From a virus (taxonomy: Duplodnaviria; Heunggongvirae; Uroviricota; Caudoviricetes), in IMG/VR virus record IMGVR_UViG_2534681933_000013, positions 1 through 13,383 of that record: a DNA stretch of 13,383 bases; one strand, written 5' to 3'. A program made the position numbers and the translations under genes. Below the pieces are notes generated by a model, which was not told where the DNA came from, did no database searches, and was given only the letters and a program-made list of their open reading frames with translations. The first letter of the stretch is position 1, and every line of letters begins with the position of its first letter. Shown here one piece after another: positions 1-13,383 of this stretch.

Positions 1-777
<777 letters not shown>

Positions 778-856
778 TTCGAACTCCTTAAATTTATTTG
801 AAGGCAATAAAAAAGTAGGATTTATCCGCAATGGAAGCAAGGCATTACAGGCTTAA

Positions 857-876
857 TTTAAATAACAAAATCCTAA
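857..876 (-). promoter_or_regulatory. GAD box (GadE/GadX-type activator site) upstream of gadA
   Basis: The minus strand reads TTAGGATTTTGTTATTTAAA, an exact match to the 20-bp gad box as I recall it. It lies about 80-100 bp upstream of the gadA ATG in an AT-rich region. Confidence 0.6.
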
Positions 877-944
877 GCAGAAAAATGATCTTTTATAATA
901 TAAACATTTAATATGATAATATTAAAAACAGACTTTATTATCGT

Positions 945-977
945 AATAAAAATCGCCCAAACATTCCTGTTCGGGCG
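945..977 (-). terminator. Intrinsic terminator downstream of yhjA
   Basis: Stem CGCCCAAACA (954-963), loop TTCC, stem TGTTCGGGCG (968-977), 9 of 10 pairs. On the minus-strand RNA it is followed by AUUUUUAUU, about 10 nt after the yhjA stop. Confidence 0.6.
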
Positions 978-987
978 ATCAAATTAA

Positions 988-2385
988 TTATTGTTTATCC
1001 TGCATATACGGCGTGTAAACCCCGTTCAGACTGTGCAGGAAAGCTACGATATCATCCACATCCTCCTGCGGCAGCTCTTTGCCTACCTGATAGCGCAACA
1101 TCAGTTTCACCGCCCCGTCCAGCGTCGGCACGTCACCGCGATGGAAGTACGGTGCCGTTAAAGCAACGTTACGTAAACCGGGTACTTTCTGACGCAATTT
1201 ATCACGCTCTTCTTTAGTCACATTCATACGACCAATATCCGCCGCCGTAATTTCCCCAAAGTTAAAGTCTTTTTTCAGCCCCAACGGTTCGAAGGAACGT
1301 CCGCCGAGAATAATTCCACCATGACAAGTTGCACATTTATTATCTTTAAATAATTGATAGCCTTTTTTCTGTTGCGCCGTCAGCGCATTTTCATCCCCAC
1401 GCAACCATTTATCAAATGGGGAATCCGGCGTAATTAATGTTTTCTCAAATTCAGCAATGGCATCAGTAATATTTTCGCCACTGAAACCTTGCGGATAGAC
1501 GTCGAGGAACTGCGCTTTAAGCTGCGGATCTTTTTCCAGCTTAGCAATAATTTCGTCCCAGGATTTTGACGCCATTTCAATCGGGTTCAACGGCGGTCCA
1601 CCAGCCTGATCCTGCAATGTTGCCGCACGACCATCCCAGAACTGCTCAACGTTAAATACTGAGTTAAATACCGTCGGCGCGTTAATCGGCCCAACTGCGC
1701 CACCAACACCAATCGATGTTTTTCTGCCATCGACGCCCCCCGCATTCAACGCATGGCAATGAGCGCATGAAATGGTGCTATCAGCCGATAAACGGGGATC
1801 GTGATACAGCGCAAAGCCCAACGCCACTTTTTGCGCATCGGTAGGCAGTTTTTGCGGGATGGGCTGCACCGGTTCATTGCGATGCTCCGGAGCAGTATCA
1901 TTGCTGGCGTAATATTCCGCGCGCTGTTTTGCAATCCAGGCCAGTATTTCCGCCCGCTCTTCATCACTCACCTTACCCGCCCAGTGTAGCGCGGTATAAC
2001 GCGTTGGCGGCATAGTTTCATACTGCATCACCCATTCAATCTTATTCAGATCGCTTTGCGAAACGGGTTTATCAGCCAGCAGAGCAGCACGCACGGCCTC
2101 GAGGTTAAAAGATTTATATCCAAGCTTAATGTCGTAATCCATCAACTGTTTCGCGCCAGGAATATAATAATAGGCGGGTAATTCTGCCGAAGGCGTGTGG
2201 CAATAGTCGCATCCTTTTTCGCGGAGAAAGCCTAAAACCTTATTATTTTCACTGACAGCAGATGCCTGAACATCGGCCTGTTTACTGCGTTTATTATCGT
2301 GGTACCACACATAACCAGATAACCCTAAATAGCAAATCGCGACGCCAGCCAGGCCGATCGCGGTAATACGTGAGACCATTTTCAT
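988..2385 (-). CDS. yhjA: Membrane-anchored tri-haem cytochrome c peroxidase (465 aa)
   Basis: Complete ORF with an N-terminal hydrophobic segment and three CxxCH haem motifs (CDYCH, CAHCH, CATCH). GAGGGA Shine-Dalgarno upstream of the ATG. Position between gadA and treF matches K-12. Confidence 0.9.
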   Translation of the reverse strand: MKMVSRITAIGLAGVAICYLGLSGYVWYHDNKRSKQADVQASAVSENNKVLGFLREKGCDYCHTPSAELPAYYYIPGAKQLMDYDIKLGYKSFNLEAVRAALLADKPVSQSDLNKIEWVMQYETMPPTRYTALHWAGKVSDEERAEILAWIAKQRAEYYASNDTAPEHRNEPVQPIPQKLPTDAQKVALGFALYHDPRLSADSTISCAHCHALNAGGVDGRKTSIGVGGAVGPINAPTVFNSVFNVEQFWDGRAATLQDQAGGPPLNPIEMASKSWDEIIAKLEKDPQLKAQFLDVYPQGFSGENITDAIAEFEKTLITPDSPFDKWLRGDENALTAQQKKGYQLFKDNKCATCHGGIILGGRSFEPLGLKKDFNFGEITAADIGRMNVTKEERDKLRQKVPGLRNVALTAPYFHRGDVPTLDGAVKLMLRYQVGKELPQEDVDDIVAFLHSLNGVYTPYMQDKQ

Positions 2386-2492
2386 TATTCTTCCCTCACG
2401 GTGGTGAGTTATTGTGACCCAGAAAATTTTCCAGAATGCTGCAAACGTCTCTGCGAGACAAAGCCATCATAAAAAACAGGGAGATACGCTTT

Positions 2493-2506
2493 TTGATAGG
2501 AATCAA
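2493..2506. promoter_or_regulatory. FNR/CRP-family box TTGAT-N4-ATCAA upstream of yhjA
   Basis: TTGATAGGAATCAA matches both FNR half-sites perfectly, centred about 114 bp upstream of the yhjA ATG. yhjA is known to be anaerobically induced via FNR. Confidence 0.55.
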
Positions 2507-2759
2507 TCAATTACATGAATATAAACTATCAATAAGATAGCCTGTGCCTATTACCCAGATCAGGAATGGCATATCATGATTGCGGCAAGAGCAGGATTGA
2601 ATGTTCTGAAAATGAAAAACAACACGAAATCTGTATTTTTATAAATTCCATTGATATTAGTGCGTTATATTTTTTGACAGGTTAATAAACGTGATCCACC
2701 GCACGCTTTGTCGCCCACCAGGCGGAGCGAATGACTACCCTTAAAGAAAAGCCCGATAA

Positions 2760-4439
<1,680 letters not shown>

Positions 4440-4442
4440 TAT

Positions 4443-4480
4443 TTTTACAGCCAGCCGCTAACTTCCTGCTGGCTGTAAAA
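4443..4480. terminator. Hairpin between convergent treF and yhjB, possible terminator
   Basis: Perfect 12-13 bp inverted repeat TTTTACAGCCAGC / GCTGGCTGTAAAA around a 12-nt loop, starting 4 bp after the treF stop. The flanking U-tract is weak, so terminator function is uncertain. Confidence 0.4.
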
Positions 4481-4489
4481 TTATCCTCT

Positions 4490-5092
4490 TCAGGAGGAGA
4501 TATTTAACATCATTGCCGCCTGGGTGCGATTTTTCACTTCCAGACGGCGATACAGGGATTCCAGATGCGCTTTTACCGTTCCGGTACTGATATTCAGCGC
4601 TCTGCCGATCTCCTTATTTGATTCGCCCGCCGCTAACATGGTTAAAATCTCCCGCTGGCGGGCGCTTAACGATTTGAGATCTTTAATGTCCTTTTCCGGC
4701 GTCGTCCGCCAGTCTCCAGGCAGAAACATCATCCCCATCGCCGCACTATTTACCGCCAACGCAAATGTCTCGACGGTTGAATCACGAGGCACAATGGCCA
4801 GCACATTAAAATGGATAACTTCCTGTAACCACCGTTTATTGCAGTCCGTCGCCGTAATTAACACCTTAACCTCAGGAAATTGCACCACGGTTTTTTGCAG
4901 CAACCAGTAGCAAAACTCACCATCCTGATCGCCATCGAGCATAACTAAGGCTTCAGGGTAACTTTCCAGCTTTTGCCATAACTCGTCTGCCTGACTGGCC
5001 CCCTGAATACTCACTCCTGGAATACGCTGCTGTAAACTGATTTTCATTCCATGAATAAATATTGACTGCCTGTCAAACATGACTATTTGCAT
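4490..5092 (-). CDS. yhjB: LuxR/FixJ-type HTH regulator with a degenerate receiver-like N-terminus (200 aa)
   Basis: Complete ORF with a C-terminal LuxR-type HTH (REILTMLAAGESNKEIGRALNISTGTVKAHLESLYRRL). Position and length match K-12 yhjB. Confidence 0.85.
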   Translation of the reverse strand: MQIVMFDRQSIFIHGMKISLQQRIPGVSIQGASQADELWQKLESYPEALVMLDGDQDGEFCYWLLQKTVVQFPEVKVLITATDCNKRWLQEVIHFNVLAIVPRDSTVETFALAVNSAAMGMMFLPGDWRTTPEKDIKDLKSLSARQREILTMLAAGESNKEIGRALNISTGTVKAHLESLYRRLEVKNRTQAAMMLNISS

Positions 5093-5611
5093 AACTGAAT
5101 CTCCACCTGAATACGTTAAAAAGACTTAAGTAGTGGAAGGGTATTACCCGCGAGAAAAAATAAGAATTCGCCATTTGGCGGTGGCCATTCTACAGAGATG
5201 GCGCGTAGAAAATAGTTACCGATATAAATAGTTACAGCTAAACGCCTGAAATTACATGTCGAGGGCACTATTTAAAACAATTTTGAGGATTTCCTTATAT
5301 TGGTGGTTAGTACGCATGCAATTAAAAATGAAATTCCGCGACCACAAGCCAAAATAACAAATGGCAATGAGACAAAAATAAGCACAAATAGCCAATATGT
5401 CCTCTATTCACTTTAAAGGGAATCGCTGAAAAATACGCTCTGTTTAAGGGGATTCACCTTTCTCAGAAAGCTATTCCGCCCTTTTCCTGCTGAGAAATCG
5501 CCACATTCGTCATGACAACATTGTGAAACCCGGCATTAGATGTTAGAAAAAATAATAAACAATGCGATATGCGCGTTACTGTTTCGCTGTGAACAACAAT
5601 CGGTCAAAGAA

Positions 5612-6592
5612 ATGGATAAAATTCACGCAATGCAGTTGTTCATCAAAGTCGCGGAGCTGGAAAGTTTTTCCCGCGCAGCGGATTTCTTTGCTTTGCCAAA
5701 AGGAAGTGTTTCGCGCCAGATACAGGCACTGGAACATCAACTTGGCACCCAGCTTCTCCAGCGCACCACGCGACGGGTCAAACTCACGCCAGAAGGCATG
5801 ACCTATTATCAACGAGCAAAAGATGTGTTGAGTAATCTCAACGAACTGGACGGTCTGTTTCAGCAGGATGCCACCAGTATCAGCGGTAAATTACGCATCG
5901 ACATCCCGCCAGGAATCGCAAAAAGCCTGTTACTGCCGCACCTGTCGGAATTTCTCTATCAGCATCCGGGAATTGAGCTGGAACTGAGTAGCCATGACCG
6001 TCCGGTAGATATTCTTCATGATGGTTTTGATTGCGTGATACGCACTGGCGCGTTACCGGAAGATGGCGTTATCGCCCGTCCCCTCGGCAAACTGACCATG
6101 GTCAACTGTGCCAGTCCGCACTATCTGACGCGCTTTGGTTATCCGCAAAACCCCGACGATCTCACTTCACACGCAATAGTGCGTTATACACCGCACCTGG
6201 GTGTACATCCGTTAGGTTTTGAGGTTGCCAGCGTTAATGGCGTCCAGTGGTTTAAGTCTGGCGGCATGTTGACGGTAAACAGTAGCGAAAACTATCTCGC
6301 CGCCGGTCTTGCCGGTCTGGGGATTATTCAGATCCCGCGCATTGCCGTGCGCGAAGCCCTGCGTGCCGGGCGGCTTATTGAAGTGTTGCCAGGCTACCGT
6401 GCCGAGCCGCTCTCCCTTTCGCTGGTTTATCCGCAGCGTCGGGAGCTTTCCCGGCGTGTAAACCTGTTTATTGATGCGCCGCGCGATAAATGCACTCTAT
6501 CTTGTGCGATAAATGGCATCCACGCGGCGTTTCATTATTTGAAAAAGAATTACATTTCAGGTTGCGTTATGACAGTCCCAACAGGGTGGTAG
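5612..6592 (+). CDS. yhjC: LysR-family transcriptional regulator whose last ~40 codons read into prophage DNA (chimeric C-terminus)
   Basis: N-terminal LysR HTH (MDKIHAMQLFIKVAELESFSRAADFFALPKGSVSRQ). I prefer the ATG at 5612 to the ORF-track start at 5540 because it gives the canonical LysR N-terminus. The ORF is 326 codons versus about 299 expected, and the tail from about 6472 has Mu-end character. Confidence 0.8.
   Translation: MDKIHAMQLFIKVAELESFSRAADFFALPKGSVSRQIQALEHQLGTQLLQRTTRRVKLTPEGMTYYQRAKDVLSNLNELDGLFQQDATSISGKLRIDIPPGIAKSLLLPHLSEFLYQHPGIELELSSHDRPVDILHDGFDCVIRTGALPEDGVIARPLGKLTMVNCASPHYLTRFGYPQNPDDLTSHAIVRYTPHLGVHPLGFEVASVNGVQWFKSGGMLTVNSSENYLAAGLAGLGIIQIPRIAVREALRAGRLIEVLPGYRAEPLSLSLVYPQRRELSRRVNLFIDAPRDKCTLSCAINGIHAAFHYLKKNYISGCVMTVPTGW
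6472..6540. repeat. Prophage terminal region with Mu R1/R2-like transposase-binding repeats
   Basis: TGATGCGCCGCGCGATAAATGC matches 17 of 22 positions of the Mu right end as I recall it (TGAAGCGGCGCACGAAAAACGC). CGATAAATG occurs twice, at 6484-6492 and 6507-6515, 23 bp apart. Confidence 0.55.
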
Positions 6593-7122
6593 CGGTAGAT
6601 CGTTGACAGTCCAATATCATAGATAATTGCCAGCCGCTTTCTGTCATACCCTTTCTGGAGCAATCTTGCGATCTGCTCATGCTGCTCCTTCGTCAGTTTC
6701 GGGCGACGTCCTCCAACTCTCCCTTGTGCTCGCGCAGCAGCCAGTCCTGCCAGCGTGCGCTCAACTATCAGTTCACGCTCCATTTCTGCCAGTGCACCCA
6801 TCATATGAAAAAAGAACCTTCCCATCGGAGTGCTGGTATCGATTGAATCCGTCAGACTGCGAAAATTGACACCTTTTGCGCGTAGCTCTTCTGTGAGAGC
6901 AATGAGGTGTTTCATTCTTCTACCCAACCGATCCAGCTTCCAGACCACCAATGTATCCCCTCTTTTAAGGCACTTTAAAGCGCGTTTCAGGCCTGGTCGT
7001 TCCGACTTGGTTCCGCTCATTTTGTCCTCAAAAATCTGTTCACATCCTGCGCACATTAATGCATTGCGTTGCAAATCTGTGTTTTGGTCATTTGTTGACA
7101 CACGTATGTAGCCAATCAGCAT
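6550..7122 (-). CDS. Serine DNA invertase of the Hin/Gin/Pin/Cin family (190 aa)
   Basis: Translation from the ATG at 7120-7122 reads MLIGYIRVSTNDQNTDLQRNAL...DRLGRRMKHL...SLTDSIDTSTPMGRFFFHMMGALAEMERELIVERTLAGLAAARAQGR, closely resembling Hin and Gin with the catalytic Ser in RVSTNDQ. The 292-aa ORF-track extension upstream is antisense read-through of a fibre cassette. Confidence 0.9.
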   Translation of the reverse strand: MLIGYIRVSTNDQNTDLQRNALMCAGCEQIFEDKMSGTKSERPGLKRALKCLKRGDTLVVWKLDRLGRRMKHLIALTEELRAKGVNFRSLTDSIDTSTPMGRFFFHMMGALAEMERELIVERTLAGLAAARAQGRVGGRRPKLTKEQHEQIARLLQKGYDRKRLAIIYDIGLSTIYRYHPVGTVITQPEM

Positions 7123-7176: not shown

Positions 7177-7202
7177 GAGAGATAAACGTTGGTTTAGGGG
7201 AA
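7177..7202 (+). promoter_or_regulatory. hix/gix-like 26-bp recombination site 1
   Basis: GAGAGATAAACG-TT-GGTTTAGGGGAA. The right half-site is shared with sites 2 and 3, and the site sits at the 5' edge of the conserved fibre crossover region. Confidence 0.55.
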
Positions 7203-7700
7203 GACTCGGCGCTGCCCGTTGGTGTGCCCGTTCCATGGCCCTCAGCCACACCGCCAACGGGGTGGCTGAAATGCAATGGTGCAGCATTTTCTTCTGAAAT
7301 GTATCCCAAACTGGCAAAAGCCTACCCACCAATAAATTACCGGATTTACGGGGAGAATTTATTCGCGGTTGGGATGATGGGCGCGGGGTGGATGCTGGCC
7401 GCGCTTTGCTTAATTGGCAGCCACACACAATTTTGGATCATGCACACTATATGGAATTATGGACCGGGGATGGACTTGCCGCGGGAAGTACACGGGAAGG
7501 AGTAACCCCTGGAATACTGGCTACATACGGGGACGGGGGAATAGTTAAAACAGACGTAACCCGGTTTTAAATGTGCCTTCCTCACTACGTAGCCATTTAG
7601 CTCTCGTAATGTAAAACGGTTTGGTGAAATTAGTGGAAATGTAGGTACAGAAACTCGCCCTCGCAACGTTGCATTTAATTACATCGTAAGAGCCGCATGA
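7203..7700 (+). pseudogene. Silent, degenerate alternative tail-fibre C-terminal cassette 1
   Basis: Begins with the crossover-region peptide (ALPVGVPVPWPSATPPTGWLKCNGAAFSSEMYPKLAKAYP). A 1-nt deficit in a C-run near 7326-7330 shifts the frame, a stop follows at 7568-7570 and several stops at 7590-7627. The conserved C-terminus GNVGTETRPRNVAFNYIVRAA is still encoded at 7635-7697. Confidence 0.6.
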
Positions 7701-7719
7701 AAACGTTGGTTTAGGAGAA
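7694..7719 (+). promoter_or_regulatory. hix/gix-like 26-bp recombination site 2
   Basis: CGCATGAAAACG-TT-GGTTTAGGAGAA, in the same orientation as site 1. It overlaps the stop codon of cassette 1 and immediately precedes cassette 2. Confidence 0.55.
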
Positions 7720-8187
7720 GGTTCTGCACTGCCCGTTGGCGTGCCTGTTCCATGGCCCTTAGCAACACCACCAACGGGCTGGCTGAAATGTAACGGTGCA
7801 GCATTTTCTTCTGAAATGTACCCCAAACTGGCAAAAGCCTACCCCACCAATAAATTACCGGATTTACGCGGAGAATTTATCCGTGGCTGGGATGATGGGC
7901 GAGGAATTGATGCGGCACGCGCTTTATTGAGCATTCAAAGCGGGATGTTGGAAAAACATCGCCATATTGTTGTAGCTAACGATGGATATGACACAAAAGA
8001 TGAATGGGAGTTGGCTACGATTTTCAAAAAAACATATACACAAGGCAGGGGGCTTGATGCCACAAATACAGGAGGGAGTTTGATTCCATCACCAACGCTT
8101 CATTCACGAGGAAGTATTGGTAACACAGGTGGTAGTGAAACCCGCCCCCGCAATATTGCATTTAACTATATCGTGAGGGCGGCTTAG
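7720..8187 (+). CDS. Silent alternative tail-fibre C-terminal cassette 2, promoterless gene segment with an intact frame
   Basis: Open frame from the crossover site through GSALPVGVPVPWPLATPPTGWLKCNGAAFSSEMYPKLAKAYPTNKLPDLRGEFIRGWDDGRG to the family C-terminus ...ETRPRNIAFNYIVRAA. It has no start context of its own and would be expressed only after inversion. Confidence 0.6.
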   Translation, partial: GSALPVGVPVPWPLATPPTGWLKCNGAAFSSEMYPKLAKAYPTNKLPDLRGEFIRGWDDGRGIDAARALLSIQSGMLEKHRHIVVANDGYDTKDEWELATIFKKTYTQGRGLDATNTGGSLIPSPTLHSRGSIGNTGGSETRPRNIAFNYIVRAA

Positions 8188-8193
8188 TTATAT

Positions 8194-8805
8194 TCAACTG
8201 GCTGATGCCAGTGGTATTTCCGGCAAGTTGATATCTGGTGCCATGTTTATATCCATTGCGTTCAGCGCGTCTATATAATCCAGCACGGCATTAAGCCGGG
8301 TGGTTTCTGCCTGCGTCAACTTCCGCCCGGCCCGCAACTTCAACTGAATCAGACTTATGGAATCCATTGCCGCATCAGCCAGTGACTGGCGCTTGGTTTC
8401 TGCCGCTTCTACTGCGGCACGATGTTGTACCTCAGTATCTGTCACCCATTTTTCACCATCCCATTTATCGTATGGTGTTAACGGGGCGATAGTGGTTGTA
8501 TTTTTCGGGTAGTCACCCAGCGCCGTGATTTCTTCGGTGTTTCCCGTGTCAGTGCTATAGACGGTTTCACCACGATGGTCTGGCGCATACTCCCATGAAT
8601 TTAAATCCTCCGAACGGCGAATAGCATAGCCAGATTTATGTGCGCCTGGGGCATCTAAACAGGAATTAGCCGGAATACCAACACCCACAGCAAGATATTC
8701 AGTTGATTCGGAAATATATTCCCGTGTCTCACCATCATAGTTATAAACGACGATGTTTCCTGCCTGTACGGCAATAAGGTCATCATTTAATATCGCGTTA
8801 TTCAT
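8194..8805 (-). CDS. Tail-fibre assembly chaperone (Mu U / lambda Tfa-like, 203 aa)
   Basis: Complete ORF immediately downstream of the fibre gene with a TAATG stop/start overlap, in the position occupied by tfa genes in Mu, P1, e14 and lambda. Call is by position and size; I could not confirm a family motif. Confidence 0.75.
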   Translation of the reverse strand: MNNAILNDDLIAVQAGNIVVYNYDGETREYISESTEYLAVGVGIPANSCLDAPGAHKSGYAIRRSEDLNSWEYAPDHRGETVYSTDTGNTEEITALGDYPKNTTTIAPLTPYDKWDGEKWVTDTEVQHRAAVEAAETKRQSLADAAMDSISLIQLKLRAGRKLTQAETTRLNAVLDYIDALNAMDINMAPDINLPEIPLASAS

Positions 8806-9253
8806 TATGCGGTTCTCACAATATAATTGAAGGCAATATTGCGTGGGCGGTTTTCATTCCCATCTGAGGATTCCGTTCTGTATTGACTGGTAAATCTACC
8901 GTTAATTGCACCTTGCCGGACGGCATTATCTGTCGACAACAGACTATCCCCTCTTTTGTCATTTGGCACCAGTACCGTGTTATCCCACGCATCCCATGAC
9001 CGAATATTATGATAATGACTTCCTGTTAACCACCCCTGCATGCTTAAGATGCCCCTTCCGGCATCCACCCCGCGCCCATCATCCCAGCCACGGATAAATT
9101 CTCCGCGTAAATCCGGTAATTTATTGTTGGGTAGGCCTTTGCCAGATTTGGGTACATTTCAGAAGAAAATGCTGCACCGTTACATTTCAGCCAGCCCGTT
9201 GGTGGTGTTGCTAAGGGCCATGGAACAGGCACGCCAACGGGCAGTGCAGAACC

Positions 9254-9279
9254 TTCTCCTAAACCAAGGTAATTGAGGA
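9254..9279 (-). promoter_or_regulatory. hix/gix-like 26-bp recombination site 3, within the expressed fibre gene
   Basis: Plus strand TTCTCCTAAACC-AA-GGTAATTGAGGA matches about 19 of 26 positions of hixL as I recall it (TTCTTGAAAACCAAGGTTTTTGATAA). It is inverted relative to sites 1 and 2 and lies at the constant/variable boundary. Confidence 0.6.
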
Positions 9280-9439
9280 CTTCTTTTATACTGCCCATAG
9301 CGATAATAGCGCGACCAATAGCTGTAAGGGTTGTCAGTGCTGCGCGGTCTGCTCCGGTAAAATAAGGCAACCGATCTGCTGCAGTGGCAAGTCCTGCCAG
9401 AGCAGTGAGCGTGGCATCTGCCGGTTGTTTTCCGTTTGC

Positions 9440-9990
9440 CAGATCGTATGCAGCCTTGACCGCTTTCGGTGTGGCGGCCAGTATTTCAGACGTGCTGTTG
9501 ATGTCACTGCTCAATTGTACGGTGCCTTTTGCCGTCAGCGAGGCAGCAGGCACTCCCGTTATCTGACTCCACGGGTGAGTGTGGCTGACGGGCGCCTTGC
9601 CGGCTGCAAGGTCGTATGCAGCCTTGACCGCCTTCGGCGTGGCAGCCTCAGTTTCTGATTGACTGTCCGTGGCGCTGCTCAGTTGTACGGTGCCTTTTGC
9701 CGTCAGCGAGGCAGCAGGGACTCCCGTTATCTGACTCCACGGGTGAGTGTGGCTGACGGGCGCCTTGCCGGCTGCAAGGTCGTATGCAGCCTTGACCGCC
9801 TTCGGCGTGGCAGCCTCAGTTTCTGATTGACTGTCCGTGGCGCTGCTCAGTTGTACGGTGCCTTTTGCCGTCAGCGAGGCAGCAGGCACTCCCGTTATCT
9901 GACTCCACGGGTGAGTATGGCTGACGGGGGCCTTGCCGGCAGCCAGGTCATATGCAGCCTTGACGGCCTTTGGTGTGGCGGCCAGCGTTT
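9440..9990 (-). repeat. 168-bp in-frame tandem repeat array inside the tail-fibre gene
   Basis: The string CTGACTCC recurs at 9563, 9731 and 9899. Units 9563-9730 and 9731-9898 are near-identical; the flanking units are partial or diverged. Each unit encodes a 56-aa module. Confidence 0.8.
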
Positions 9991-10252
9991 CAGAGGTGCT
10001 AGTTGGTGGCACTGCTCAGTTGGGTGAACCCCTTAGCTGTCAGTGTCGCGTCCGGGTGGTTACGGGAACGTACGTGTTCAGCCAGTGACTGTGCGGCTTC
10101 CTCCGTTTTTTTCTTCAGCCATTTCGTCCTGTTTGCCAGTTGCCGGGGGGCTCGATTTGATATCCCGTCTGCACCACCCAGAACCGGATCTGATGTCTCC
10201 AGTTGATAGATATTTTCTTCCCACTTTTCTGTTTCATTCAGGTTTCCCATAA

Positions 10253-10831
10253 TCAACTGCTCCCGTGGTTATAACTGCCATCATGGATGGCGGTATTGTT
10301 ATAGCGAATGGCCACAGACTGATACTCCAGGCTGGCCAGATGGCAGCGGGCCGGTGCAAATGCAGCCAGCGTCTGACGCAGCATCGCGGCCTGATCGTTA
10401 GTAATGGGCTGTTTCAGAATAACGCGATAAACTGCCCAGGCGGCTGCATCTCCATGAACAAACAGTCCGTTATAGCTGCGATTGCCGTCGTAACTGAGAC
10501 GACCTGTGCCTTCAATCAGATCCACTTCACCAAAGCCAAAACGGCGGATAACTTCCCGGATTGACCACGGCGTCCCTTTATACCGGTGCAGTTCGATGGC
10601 TGCTTTTATAAGCATGCGGCGAACATCGTCCGATTCCGCCAGCTCCCAGCCATCGCCAGACAGTGAGAACTGCTCGCCCAGCCATGGCAGCGCGGAACTG
10701 TCGACGATATCGACGAGAAAGACCATCAGTACGCTCAGGTCGATGTTATCCAGCCGTCCTGCCAGTCTTCCCAGCGTCCTGAGACTGATATCACCCTCAA
10801 GCGGTGGCGGGAGTTGTAATGGCTCAGTCAT
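10253..10831 (-). CDS. Baseplate/tail protein, P2 gpI / Mu gp48-like (192 aa)
   Basis: Complete ORF immediately upstream of the fibre gene, with overlapping stop and start codons on both sides. Call is by size and position in the baseplate operon. Confidence 0.7.
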   Translation of the reverse strand: MTEPLQLPPPLEGDISLRTLGRLAGRLDNIDLSVLMVFLVDIVDSSALPWLGEQFSLSGDGWELAESDDVRRMLIKAAIELHRYKGTPWSIREVIRRFGFGEVDLIEGTGRLSYDGNRSYNGLFVHGDAAAWAVYRVILKQPITNDQAAMLRQTLAAFAPARCHLASLEYQSVAIRYNNTAIHDGSYNHGSS

Positions 10832-11927
10832 CAGACACTCCAGTCATGTTAAGAGTGATTGCCGTACAGTTTGCCCATTCGTTTTCTGCCACCACCCGCA
10901 GTGCCGGTGTCACCAGTTCAACCTGGTACACCCCGGAAACGGACAATGCACTGATAATCTGGCTGGGGACAATATCGCGCCCCAGCGTGGCGGCACGTGA
11001 TGCCACCCAGTTCTGTATGGCGCTGTTAGCGGCATCTTTTACAGACCTGGCATCCTGATCACGATAGATCGTAATCTTGGCTTCAATGGTGTAATCCACC
11101 TTCACTGGTGTTTTAGCCCGCACTGTATCAGTGAGTGGCCTGACTTTCTCATCAGAGCAGAAACTCTCTACCAGCGTGAGAACACCGCCGTCCGGCAGAC
11201 CGGTACTGAGCAGCGGATACAGATCTACGGTCCCGGGAACCGGGGAAAGCACAGCAACATCGACAATGTTGGGATGGGCCTGCATGGCATGAAAGCGGTA
11301 TGCGCCACGGCTTCCGGCATTGGTGAATGACTCCGGGGCCAGCCTGATACGCTCCCGGAGCCTGTCATCGTCTTCCTGTTCTGAACCGCCGGAACTGGCC
11401 GTCAGATTGCTCACCAGCAGGTCGACGTTATCAATCTCATCGAGTAACTGACTGACCTGCGCAGGTTGCCAGCCGTTACCAGCGGTACCGGGTTCGGTAC
11501 AGGTGGACGTGACATTGACCAGCAGCAATCCGGCCTTCAGTACCACATCTGTATCGGTGGCAAAAATAACGCTGTCGGAAGCGCTGACGCGGGTGCCTGC
11601 CGGGATCAGCACATCAATGGCCAGTGCCTCATCTACGGAGAACTGGAGCGTGGTAGTGGCAGGCTGCGCGGCAAGACGGTATACACCGACCAGTTCACCG
11701 AGGTAATCAATCATCGGCTCACGGGCAAAGGCGACCAGATTCTGCTTTGCTGCCTCCTGTACCGCAACCCTGACCAGCATTTCGCGATAGGCCCACAGAT
11801 CAATCAGCAGACGTTCTGCCTGTGCCGGGTACAGCGTTTTGCCGGTATCCGCTTCATACTTCGCAATCATTTCTGCCGTGATTTTGTCGGCATCGCGTTC
11901 AATAAAATCGGGTTCTGTCAGCGCCAT
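10824..11927 (-). CDS. Baseplate protein, P2 gpJ / Mu gp47-like (367 aa)
   Basis: Complete ORF between the gp25-like and gpI-like genes, overlapping both neighbours by 8-10 nt. Size and position fit the Baseplate_J family. Confidence 0.75.
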   Translation of the reverse strand: MALTEPDFIERDADKITAEMIAKYEADTGKTLYPAQAERLLIDLWAYREMLVRVAVQEAAKQNLVAFAREPMIDYLGELVGVYRLAAQPATTTLQFSVDEALAIDVLIPAGTRVSASDSVIFATDTDVVLKAGLLLVNVTSTCTEPGTAGNGWQPAQVSQLLDEIDNVDLLVSNLTASSGGSEQEDDDRLRERIRLAPESFTNAGSRGAYRFHAMQAHPNIVDVAVLSPVPGTVDLYPLLSTGLPDGGVLTLVESFCSDEKVRPLTDTVRAKTPVKVDYTIEAKITIYRDQDARSVKDAANSAIQNWVASRAATLGRDIVPSQIISALSVSGVYQVELVTPALRVVAENEWANCTAITLNMTGVSDD

Positions 11928-12265
11928 AGCAGCTCCTGAGTCCGGGTCTGTCCGTCTGAGCCTTTCCAGCTCACCCGGAGCGTAAGATGTTCGCCGTCGA
12001 CGGCGGGTTTAACTGACATAAGCTGGCAGCGGGGCTCCCAGCGCCGGATGGCATCGACGGATTCGCGCACCACATGCGGAATGGCCCGGTCTACAGGCCA
12101 GTCGATATAAAGATGCAGATTGCTGCCGAACTCCGGGCGATGCGGGTCGCTGCCGCGGGGAGTCCGCAGGATAATTTGAATCGCCTGCCGGATATCATCC
12201 AGCCCCCGGACAATTTCGCCGGGAGCCTGCAGGGTCGGTTGCCAGAATACTGAGGTTGTTTTCAT
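11918..12265 (-). CDS. Baseplate wedge protein, gp25/gpW-like (115 aa)
   Basis: Contains the gp25-family core IQIILRTPRGSDPHRPEFGSNL. The 115-aa size matches P2 gpW and Mu gp46. Confidence 0.8.
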   Translation of the reverse strand: MKTTSVFWQPTLQAPGEIVRGLDDIRQAIQIILRTPRGSDPHRPEFGSNLHLYIDWPVDRAIPHVVRESVDAIRRWEPRCQLMSVKPAVDGEHLTLRVSWKGSDGQTRTQELLWR

Positions 12266-12283
12266 GGGGGCAGTATTGCCCCC
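12266..12283 (-). other. Stable hairpin abutting the start codon of the gp25-like gene
   Basis: GGGGGCA-GTAT-TGCCCCC, a perfect 7-bp GC-rich stem. On the mRNA it ends directly at the AUG and covers the likely Shine-Dalgarno position. Confidence 0.5.
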
Positions 12284-12319
12284 GTGCGGGAACGCTGATA
12301 TTAAAGGCGTTTAAAAAGC

Positions 12320-12916
12320 TCAGTGGGAGTGGTGGCTGGAGTTTTCGCCATCAGACAACATACTGCCCGTGGCATGGGCATTCCCTTTAATCTCGATATT
12401 GCCATGGATGGTCGCGGTAACACCTTCACCACCAGAACCCGCCATGCCTCCTTCGTAAATCAGCTTACCCCTGACACGCAGATCTCCGGTAAGTTCGGTT
12501 TCCGGTGCGTCAATCGTGGCTTTCTGTGTTTTCAATACCACATCAGCACCACACTCAATGACAATATGCTCAATGCCGCCCCGGATGGTCAGAGTGTGCG
12601 TCTTCCGGTTGTAGCTGTACTCTGCACCATCAGCAAACCGGGTTCCCCGGATATTTTTGTCACTGAACGGTGGTTTATCGACGTCTGAATACACCGCGCC
12701 CAGAATAACACCATCCTCGCCGTTGGCATCGAGCAGTACCTCAACCTGCTCCCCCACGTCAGGGAGCCAGTAATCTTTGTTATCCTGGGTATTGCGCTGC
12801 AGCACGTTAAGCCAGTTTGTGCGCAGGTTATCGCATTCAGGCAGACGAACGCGGGCCTGAACCCTGTCGGCATCAACGGCACTGACCGTACCGACCTGAC
12901 GAGTGACACCAGTCAT
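12320..12916 (-). CDS. Baseplate spike/assembly protein, gpV / Mu gp45-like (198 aa)
   Basis: Complete ORF with a gpV-like N-terminal segment (WLPDVGEQVEVLL) and a glycine-rich C-terminal part. Its start overlaps the upstream gene's stop (ATGA). Confidence 0.75.
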   Translation of the reverse strand: MTGVTRQVGTVSAVDADRVQARVRLPECDNLRTNWLNVLQRNTQDNKDYWLPDVGEQVEVLLDANGEDGVILGAVYSDVDKPPFSDKNIRGTRFADGAEYSYNRKTHTLTIRGGIEHIVIECGADVVLKTQKATIDAPETELTGDLRVRGKLIYEGGMAGSGGEGVTATIHGNIEIKGNAHATGSMLSDGENSSHHSH

Positions 12917-13383
12917 TTTTTCTTCTCCTTAATCACCGTCGATGTACTGCCATCCGGGTGATAAACCGTGAGTTTCTGAGTTTTTTGTTTTTTCCCTCTT
13001 GTGACTGGCCCCCGTGCCACTTCCAGCTCTGTGGTGTAGCCGCTGTTACGGTCAAACGCATGGCGGGCAGTGGTTATGAGCCATGGCCCGGATAACTGCC
13101 CAAAACCCACCAGTTCAATTTTGTTGCCTGCTGTCAGTTGAGGTGTTCCCGTCAGCGTCAGGGAGCCGTTCTGCTGGTATTCGTTATGTCTGGCCAGTGC
13201 TGAATCCGCTTTAATCCGGGCACTGTCCGGGTCGCTGACGCGGCTGTTAACTTTAAGTGAGTCAGCGCTGGTAACCTTACCACCTTTGAGCTTTTTGTCG
13301 CTTTCACGGGTACCACCATCAGCTTCGTAGACGATCAGTTTTTTACTGCTGCTTTTCTGGTGTTTTACCTTTGCAGATTTATA
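12913..13383 (-). CDS. Phage baseplate/tail protein, C-terminal 156 codons; possibly the gpD / Mu gp44 hub, by synteny only
   Basis: The minus-strand frame is open from the window end to the stop at 12913-12915 (ends ...LTVYHPDGSTSTVIKEKKK). The ORF track shows only its last 65 codons from an internal GTG. Product assignment is positional. Confidence 0.45.
   Translation of the reverse strand, partial: YKSAKVKHQKSSSKKLIVYEADGGTRESDKKLKGGKVTSADSLKVNSRVSDPDSARIKADSALARHNEYQQNGSLTLTGTPQLTAGNKIELVGFGQLSGPWLITTARHAFDRNSGYTTELEVARGPVTRGKKQKTQKLTVYHPDGSTSTVIKEKKK

Follow-up and report, generated by a model that had tools for sequence, protein, structure and literature searches.

Does a single extra nucleotide in the tail-fibre gene of an E. 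coli prophage mark a phage that can no longer build its fibre, or an error in the record from which the gene is read? We addressed this question in the window, a 13,383-nt stretch that is the reverse complement of a complete draft E. coli contig (AIFS01000042.1; assembly GCA_000249535.2), in which one T at position 10001 interrupts the constant part of a fibre gene with exchangeable ends. The original prediction held the prophage to be defective unless the T was a sequencing error, and it is on this proviso that the question mainly turns. The break is a private single-base frameshift in a known type of gene on a draft contig, an ordinary finding, and the reality of the T is on balance doubtful.

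Positions 1-6471 are E. coli chromosome and carry gadA, ccp, treF, yhjB and rcdB. This part is identical to O55:H7 strain RM12579 from 47 to 6471, the sole mismatches in 6,471 nt being positions 40 and 46, and the host chromosome is of the O55:H7/O157:H7 type. Both mismatches fall at the contig start, in gadA, at bases that vary between gadA and gadB, and the best match to bases 1-150 in an O157:H7 genome is gadB, which suggests that reads from these paralogues were mixed at the contig start. Prophage sequence follows from 6472, with these features at its right end and in its baseplate region:

6472-6500, plus strand: transposable prophage, right end (TGATGCGCCGCGCGATAAATGCAC...), which meets rcdB 40 nt ahead of the stop codon of that gene
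10253-13383, minus strand: P2-type baseplate genes I, J, W, V and the 3' part of D, identified by Pfam families and all open
10253-10831, minus strand: gene I
10824-11927, minus strand: gene J
11918-12265, minus strand: gene W
12320-12916, minus strand: gene V
12913-13383, minus strand: gene D, 3' part

The prophage terminus TGATGCGCCGCGCGATAAATGCAC (5'-TG...) abuts rcdB here, DNA near yidJ in E. coli DLI.5a (locus L001) and DNA near otsB in E. coli TUM1857 (L002), both complete RefSeq genomes. The same terminus beside different host genes in three lysogens indicates a transposable, Mu-like phage, and the prophage is Mu-like and transposable, of the PhiKM/BcepMu type, a class read from its right end; the left two-thirds lie beyond the window, which ends inside gene D at 13383. 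Its closest named phage is Escherichia phage PhiKM (PQ738613), filed under Bcepmuvirus. Read on the minus strand from 13383, the order is D (3' part), V, W, J, I, fibre, fibre-assembly gene, two inverted cassettes and serine invertase. The baseplate genes differ from those of DLI.5a by 1 substitution and 0 indels, and from those of L035 (IMG/VR UViG_2529292920_000018), the closest relative found, by 0 differences. At the other end of the element, rcdB (yhjC; LysR-type regulator), which spans 5540-6592 across the junction at 6471/6472, has taken on a phage-derived 3' end that runs into the invertase gene. This rcdB-phage junction had no match in complete E. coli genomes or in other assemblies in the collections searched, and a look-up of the fusion protein, through which a second assembly of the same lysogen was sought, returned this contig alone. 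A search of IMG/VR with the rcdB 3' flank, asking whether L035 is the same insertion, likewise found no match.

The lesion itself lies just beyond gene I, among the following features of the fibre gene:

9999-10250, minus strand: truncated 5' fibre ORF, which opens with ATG 10250 just past gene I and runs for 83 codons to a TAG at 10001-9999
10001, minus strand: extra T (A on the plus strand), a non-duplicative single-base insertion reading AAC-T-AGC
9044-10012, minus strand: downstream +1-frame ORF of 322 codons from GTG 10012, reading STSETLAATPKAVKAAYDLA...
9437-9983, minus strand: tandem 168-nt (56-aa) fibre repeats, 3.3 copies (four in the constant-part outline)

On the minus strand the truncated frame ends GGG TTC ACC CAA CTG AGC AGT GCC ACC AAC TAG, that is, GFTQLSSATN and a stop, and the fibre goes on in the next frame, exactly as the original prediction had read it and at the coordinates it gave. 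The 83-aa product is a conserved tail-fibre N-terminal module: residues 1-83 match PHROG tail-fibre N-termini, and residues 69-83 hold the beginning of Pfam Phage_fiber_2. From the analogy with P2 H and Mu S, we expect this module to form the baseplate-attachment end of the fibre. The 322-codon ORF comprises the remaining constant part and the start of the currently joined cassette, and is brought to an early end by a second frameshift. The prediction's proposal that one extra nucleotide explains the break also stands, as removal of T 10001 fuses the two ORFs to ...SSATNSTSETLAATPK..., colinear with the intact homologues of DLI.5a, TUM1857 and PhiKM. The repaired protein contains Phage_fiber_2 four times together with Pfam Collar; with one base also added near 9123, the gene encodes a 481-aa fibre whose length and C-terminus equal those of L035.

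The gene's own repeats bear out this reading. The in-frame junction that had been pointed out in the downstream repeats is indeed there, SSATDSQSETEAA occurring twice and SSDINSTSEILAA once, and the extra base is visible in the spacing of a 38-nt repeat core, whose successive copies lie 168, 168 and 169 nt apart. Repeat units 2 and 3 are identical at 161 of 168 positions and include a 113-nt exact run. The break at 10001 is a discrete lesion, not a statistical signal. Phage PhiKM and the related prophages of DLI.5a, TUM1857 and ST131 strains share with the window the gene order D-V-W-J-I-fibre, the same N-terminal module and repeats, and 98.8-99.4% identity across the baseplate genes and constant part, with the same right end in different host flanks. 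Unlike the window, these relatives have their fibre genes in frame, at 369, 443 and other lengths in amino acids, and the number of 56-aa repeats differs. More widely, among relatives' fibre genes lying wholly inside the locus examined, nearly all are open, with 369-667 aa and 2-7 repeat motifs.

Whether the lesion could be bypassed depends on the inversion system downstream, which comprises:

9253-9267, minus strand: crossover site 1, at the boundary between constant and variable parts of the fibre gene
8805-9252, minus strand: cassette A, at present the joined C-terminal part, with the assembly gene after it
8194-8805, minus strand: tail-fibre assembly (chaperone) gene after cassette A, intact, 203 aa, Pfam Caudo_TAP (E = 1e-30), of the same length as in DLI.5a
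7706-8187, plus strand: crossover site 2 (7706-7720) and cassette B, Pfam Collar
7189-7700, plus strand: crossover site 3 (7189-7203) and cassette C
6550-7122, minus strand: Gin/Pin-family serine DNA invertase, 190 aa, intact, beginning MLIGYIRVSTNDQ, with YIRVSTNDQ carrying Ser9

The invertase is closely Gin-like in sequence and matches Pfam Resolvase (8e-51) and HTH_7 (1e-12) and the PHROG 'DNA invertase' family (E = 1e-94). Crossover site 1 contains TTGGTTTAGGAGAAG, and the core common to all three sites is TTGGTTTRGGRGAAG. Homology among the three cassettes begins exactly at these sites, with inverted repeats I1 and I2 starting at 9270. In relatives, all three cassette types are seen as in-frame ends of one and the same constant part: the A type in L001 and L035, the B type in L020 and the C type in L023. 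This is indirect evidence that the cassettes are exchanged, and it indicates that the switch works in this phage family. T 10001 sits 734 nt upstream of crossover site 1 (9267-9253), within the constant part, so no inversion can restore a full-length fibre, a point on which the original prediction was right.

With an invertase, inverted sites and exchanged cassettes, the locus is a member of the Gin/Cin/Pin/Min-type fibre switches. Host-range switches of this kind are known from the G segment of Mu (Gin), the C segment of P1 (Cin) and the P segment of E. coli e14 (Pin). The window resembles them in having a serine invertase beside the invertible segment, a crossover site inside the fibre gene, inverted cassettes and an assembly gene after a cassette. 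It differs from them in having three crossover sites and three cassettes rather than two sites and cassettes, in the presence of a chaperone gene only after cassette A, and in a constant part that is frameshifted in this record. Plasmid p15B carries Min, a multiple-inversion system with six crossover sites, and the window is like Min and the P2-like regions of F163 and O55:H7 CB9615 in having more than two crossover sites and several fibre ends; unlike those regions, it has fewer cassettes and a backbone that is Mu-like, not P2-like or P1-like. Cassettes B and C are 97-98% identical to cassettes of P2-like prophages in O55:H7 CB9615 and E. coli F163, and cassettes have clearly been exchanged between Mu-like and P2-like prophages. 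These two cassettes (7189-8187; 6778-7738 in L001) lack an assembly gene of their own, and that of cassette A would be antisense after inversion, a layout also seen in relatives; B- and C-type ends may fold without a dedicated chaperone or use one encoded elsewhere.

We then asked how widely the T is shared. Against DLI.5a, the 3,450 nt from 13383 to 9934 contain one substitution (12737) and the T insertion as the only indel; against L035, the 4,123 nt from 13383 to 9261, the whole repeat array included, differ by nothing but the T. The segment that contains the T is held by 601 of 5,426 complete E. coli genomes, none of which has the T (best match 140/141). Exact 30-40-mers with the T gave 0 matches in GTDB species genomes, IMG/VR and JGI metagenomes, whereas T-less control 30-40-mers were found in 21 IMG/VR contigs, and a look-up of the 322-aa ORF product across the contig collection returned this contig only. 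The comparison with intact homologues that the original prediction had proposed thus yields a T-less junction in about 600 E. coli genomes and in 21 IMG/VR contigs. An exact look-up of the 83-aa product did find 24 contigs; besides the window, the ones inspected stop immediately past codon 83, where the contig ends or an N-gap begins. A look-up of this type is bound to return such cases, and we gave the coincidence no weight, whether as support for the T or as a sign of a join artefact at this point.

Beyond what the original prediction had noted, the T is accompanied by six further single-base indels, which leave cassette B as the only intact cassette. Cassette A has lost one base near 9123, in a short tract of mingled A-type and B-type bases, a loss that puts the translation back into frame 0. 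Cassette C carries a CCCC>CCC contraction at 7328 and four single-base insertions at 7557, 7568, 7590 and 7598. These five are seen against each of the intact comparators L001, L016 and L017, to which the cassette is otherwise 96-97% identical, and a fourth intact copy, L023, aligns across the cassette with five gaps. Cassette B has 0 indels against L001, L016 and L017. The 5' part of cassette A (9099-9260 compared with 7706-7940) is a fine mosaic of A- and B-type bases, its first ~145 nt and the beginning of cassette B being 97% complementary; similar within-element homogenisation is present in L001. Such a mosaic fits gene conversion between inverted repeats and equally a consensus built from mixed inversion isomers.

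All seven indels lie within 7328-10001, 2,674 nt of repeat-rich, invertible DNA, whereas the unique flank compared with equal stringency, 9,807 nt made up of 6,425 nt of chromosome (47-6471) and 3,382 nt of baseplate genes, contains 0 indels; under uniform placement, the chance that seven of seven would be so confined is about 2e-5. The indels are also alike in kind. Four of the insertions crowd into 41 nt of cassette C, interspersed with one substitution. In all five, the one at 10001 among them, an A has been placed immediately behind a T on a single strand, for those of cassette C the minus strand; the rough chance of this per insertion is 1/8. Both deletions shorten a 4-base run.

From the distribution and type of these indels, which are circumstantial evidence, we consider it somewhat probable that T 10001 and the six others are errors of the draft consensus and not changes in the bacterial DNA, although for the T a sequencing or assembly error and a real knockout are of roughly equal likelihood. 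The constant part of the gene is made up of the 83-aa N-terminal module and four 56-aa fibre repeats, and the Gin/Pin-type invertase can join it to one of three C-terminal cassettes; under the consensus-error reading, the true gene would encode an intact 481-aa fibre. The invertible stretch is the part of the contig most difficult to assemble, on account of near-identical tandem repeats, inversion isomers that probably coexist in culture, and a second, P2-like prophage, present in related O55:H7 genomes, whose cassettes are 95-98% identical. Paralogue contamination of the cassettes is therefore plausible at that level of identity. As a source of the T we judged it unlikely, the P2-like fibre of a related O55:H7 genome being only about 77% identical around 10001.

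Mutation spectra and the near-absence of divergence point the same way. In E. coli, indels are several-fold rarer than substitutions and occur mostly in runs, and the identity with L035 over 4,123 nt leaves almost no time for seven natural frameshifts. The 41-nt insertion cluster is typical of poorly supported consensus, not of spontaneous mutation. Error is further favoured by the suggested paralogue mixing at the contig start, by two homopolymer deletions in the chaperone gene of another draft, L035, and by the absence of the T from every other sequence searched. The contig reads through the 113-nt exact repeat, close to the beginning of the array at which ten other assemblies are interrupted, suggesting that longer, more error-prone reads were used, and the project behind this accession series presumably used pyrosequencing reads, an assumption that we treat only as a lead. 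In pyrosequencing, bases are revealed in the order T-A-C-G and the main errors are insertions, about 44% of them outside homopolymers (PMC2323236). The lesions resemble artefacts of early next-generation drafts, in which single-base indels, some in runs, occur at the weakest read support and break ORFs that are intact in relatives (PMC2323236); unlike typical draft artefacts, T 10001 stands alone in otherwise perfect sequence.

This last point speaks against error. The T is lone in 4.1 kb of perfect sequence, outside a homopolymer and with no close paralogue, and the tandem repeats next to it show no discrepancy from those of L035; a real mutation, too, would look like an isolated clean insertion. 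In addition, a frameshifted silent cassette is found in at least one complete genome (L016), and defective prophages are common.

A genuine and very recent insertion of the T is the strongest rival, a serious possibility that falls short of being probable. The fibre would then be null in every inversion configuration, and the cassette lesions would be real decay or separate errors. The record shows the T without ambiguity, in unique sequence outside any homopolymer and within the 4.1 kb that is otherwise identical to L035, and its place 734 nt upstream of crossover site 1 puts it where inversion cannot act; the sole candidate restart, GTG 10012, has no ribosome-binding site at a suitable distance. 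Prophage structural genes commonly carry inactivating lesions, and one complete genome has a cassette annotated as frameshifted. Against this, zero substitutions in 4.1 kb relative to L035 set the expected number of real indels well below one, the 'A after T' signature common to the insertion cluster is hard to explain naturally, and the T is carried by no second assembly or relative in the collections searched. A non-duplicative +1 insertion is, moreover, a rare spontaneous class in E. coli mutation-accumulation spectra. The claim that the prophage is defective is thus unsupported: the T occurs in no other sequence searched, the lysogen has no second assembly there, and six more indels share a pattern like that of consensus errors.

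The two readings differ in what they imply. If the T is real, a restart product from GTG 10012 would lack the N-terminal module and, in the present orientation, would also be cut short by the second frameshift. There would be no fibre in any configuration, and induced particles would be at best fibreless and non-adsorbing. The lysogen's Mu-like prophage would then be non-infectious in any orientation of the switch, a routine prophage inactivation of strain-local interest. If the T is an error, invertible, repeat-rich fibre loci in drafts gather false frameshifts, and read support is needed before such a gene is labelled a pseudogene or its prophage defective. Either outcome leaves knowledge of fibre inversion systems unchanged.

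We regard it as very improbable that all seven indels are real and reflect decay or mutagenesis specific to the locus, for example through selection against fibre expression or import of decayed cassettes by prophage recombination. The lesions do lie strictly within the fibre and inversion module, the 5' mosaic of cassette A is what gene conversion between cassettes would give, and cassettes have passed between Mu-like and P2-like prophages. Fibre cassettes of cryptic prophages can, moreover, have host-side roles, their inversion being able to serve host defence (PMC12529663). However, four intact copies of cassette C (L001, L016, L017 and L023) are without all five indels, four insertions in 41 nt with one substitution match no known natural spectrum, and the invertase and chaperone genes of the same module are intact. 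Slimmer still is the chance of a locally targeted frameshift process, acting through 'A after T' insertions and run contractions, that silences every fibre configuration of a freshly acquired prophage and spares the invertase, chaperone and baseplate genes.

Least probable of all, with a negligible chance, is a functional break—programmed +1 frameshifting at AAC-UAG, or termination and reinitiation at GTG 10012, giving a one- or two-piece fibre—for although the 14-nt overlap between the stop at 10001-9999 and GTG 10012 could permit coupling, and known +1 sites, prfB among them, have a rare stop codon in the A site, the junction is in frame in all of the ~600 E. coli genomes and 21 viral contigs, the shift from AAC to ACU creates a middle-position mismatch at which Asn tRNA cannot re-pair, direct reading finds no Shine-Dalgarno-like element 3-6 nt upstream, and a separate distal piece would lack the N-terminal module, so that non-conservation and sequence context exclude a programmed frameshift or two-piece fibre in practice. 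We also considered the +1 at 10001 and the -1 near 9123 as a compensated pair and rejected this, the intervening 878 nt being full of stops in frame 0.

Returning to the wider record, broken genes in the fibre module are not rare in public sequences, whatever their cause. In the L035 draft the fibre-assembly gene itself carries two homopolymer deletions, matching window positions 8774 and 8505, and in the complete genome of L016 a cassette (4603-5119) is annotated as 'frameshifted'. Annotation adds breaks of its own: the fibre ORF is open in DLI.5a (L001 5051-6160; 369 aa) and TUM1857 (L002 5051-6382; 443 aa), yet both are annotated as small 'incomplete' fragments and a 3' CDS, and automatic gene calling is evidently confused by the fibre repeats. 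The copy number of the 168-nt Phage_fiber_2 repeat varies among near-identical phages (L001, L002 and L020-L037), from 2 to 7 PKAVK motifs, so that fibre length appears to be a second, repeat-driven variable beside cassette choice. Finally, two contigs of one assembly, L008 and L009 (both GCA_052599095.1), end after fibre codon 83 and have only their last 272 nt in common, with 2 mismatches, and in L008 the 83-aa module follows Mor-region genes, not baseplate gene I; the module may be exchanged between phages as a unit.
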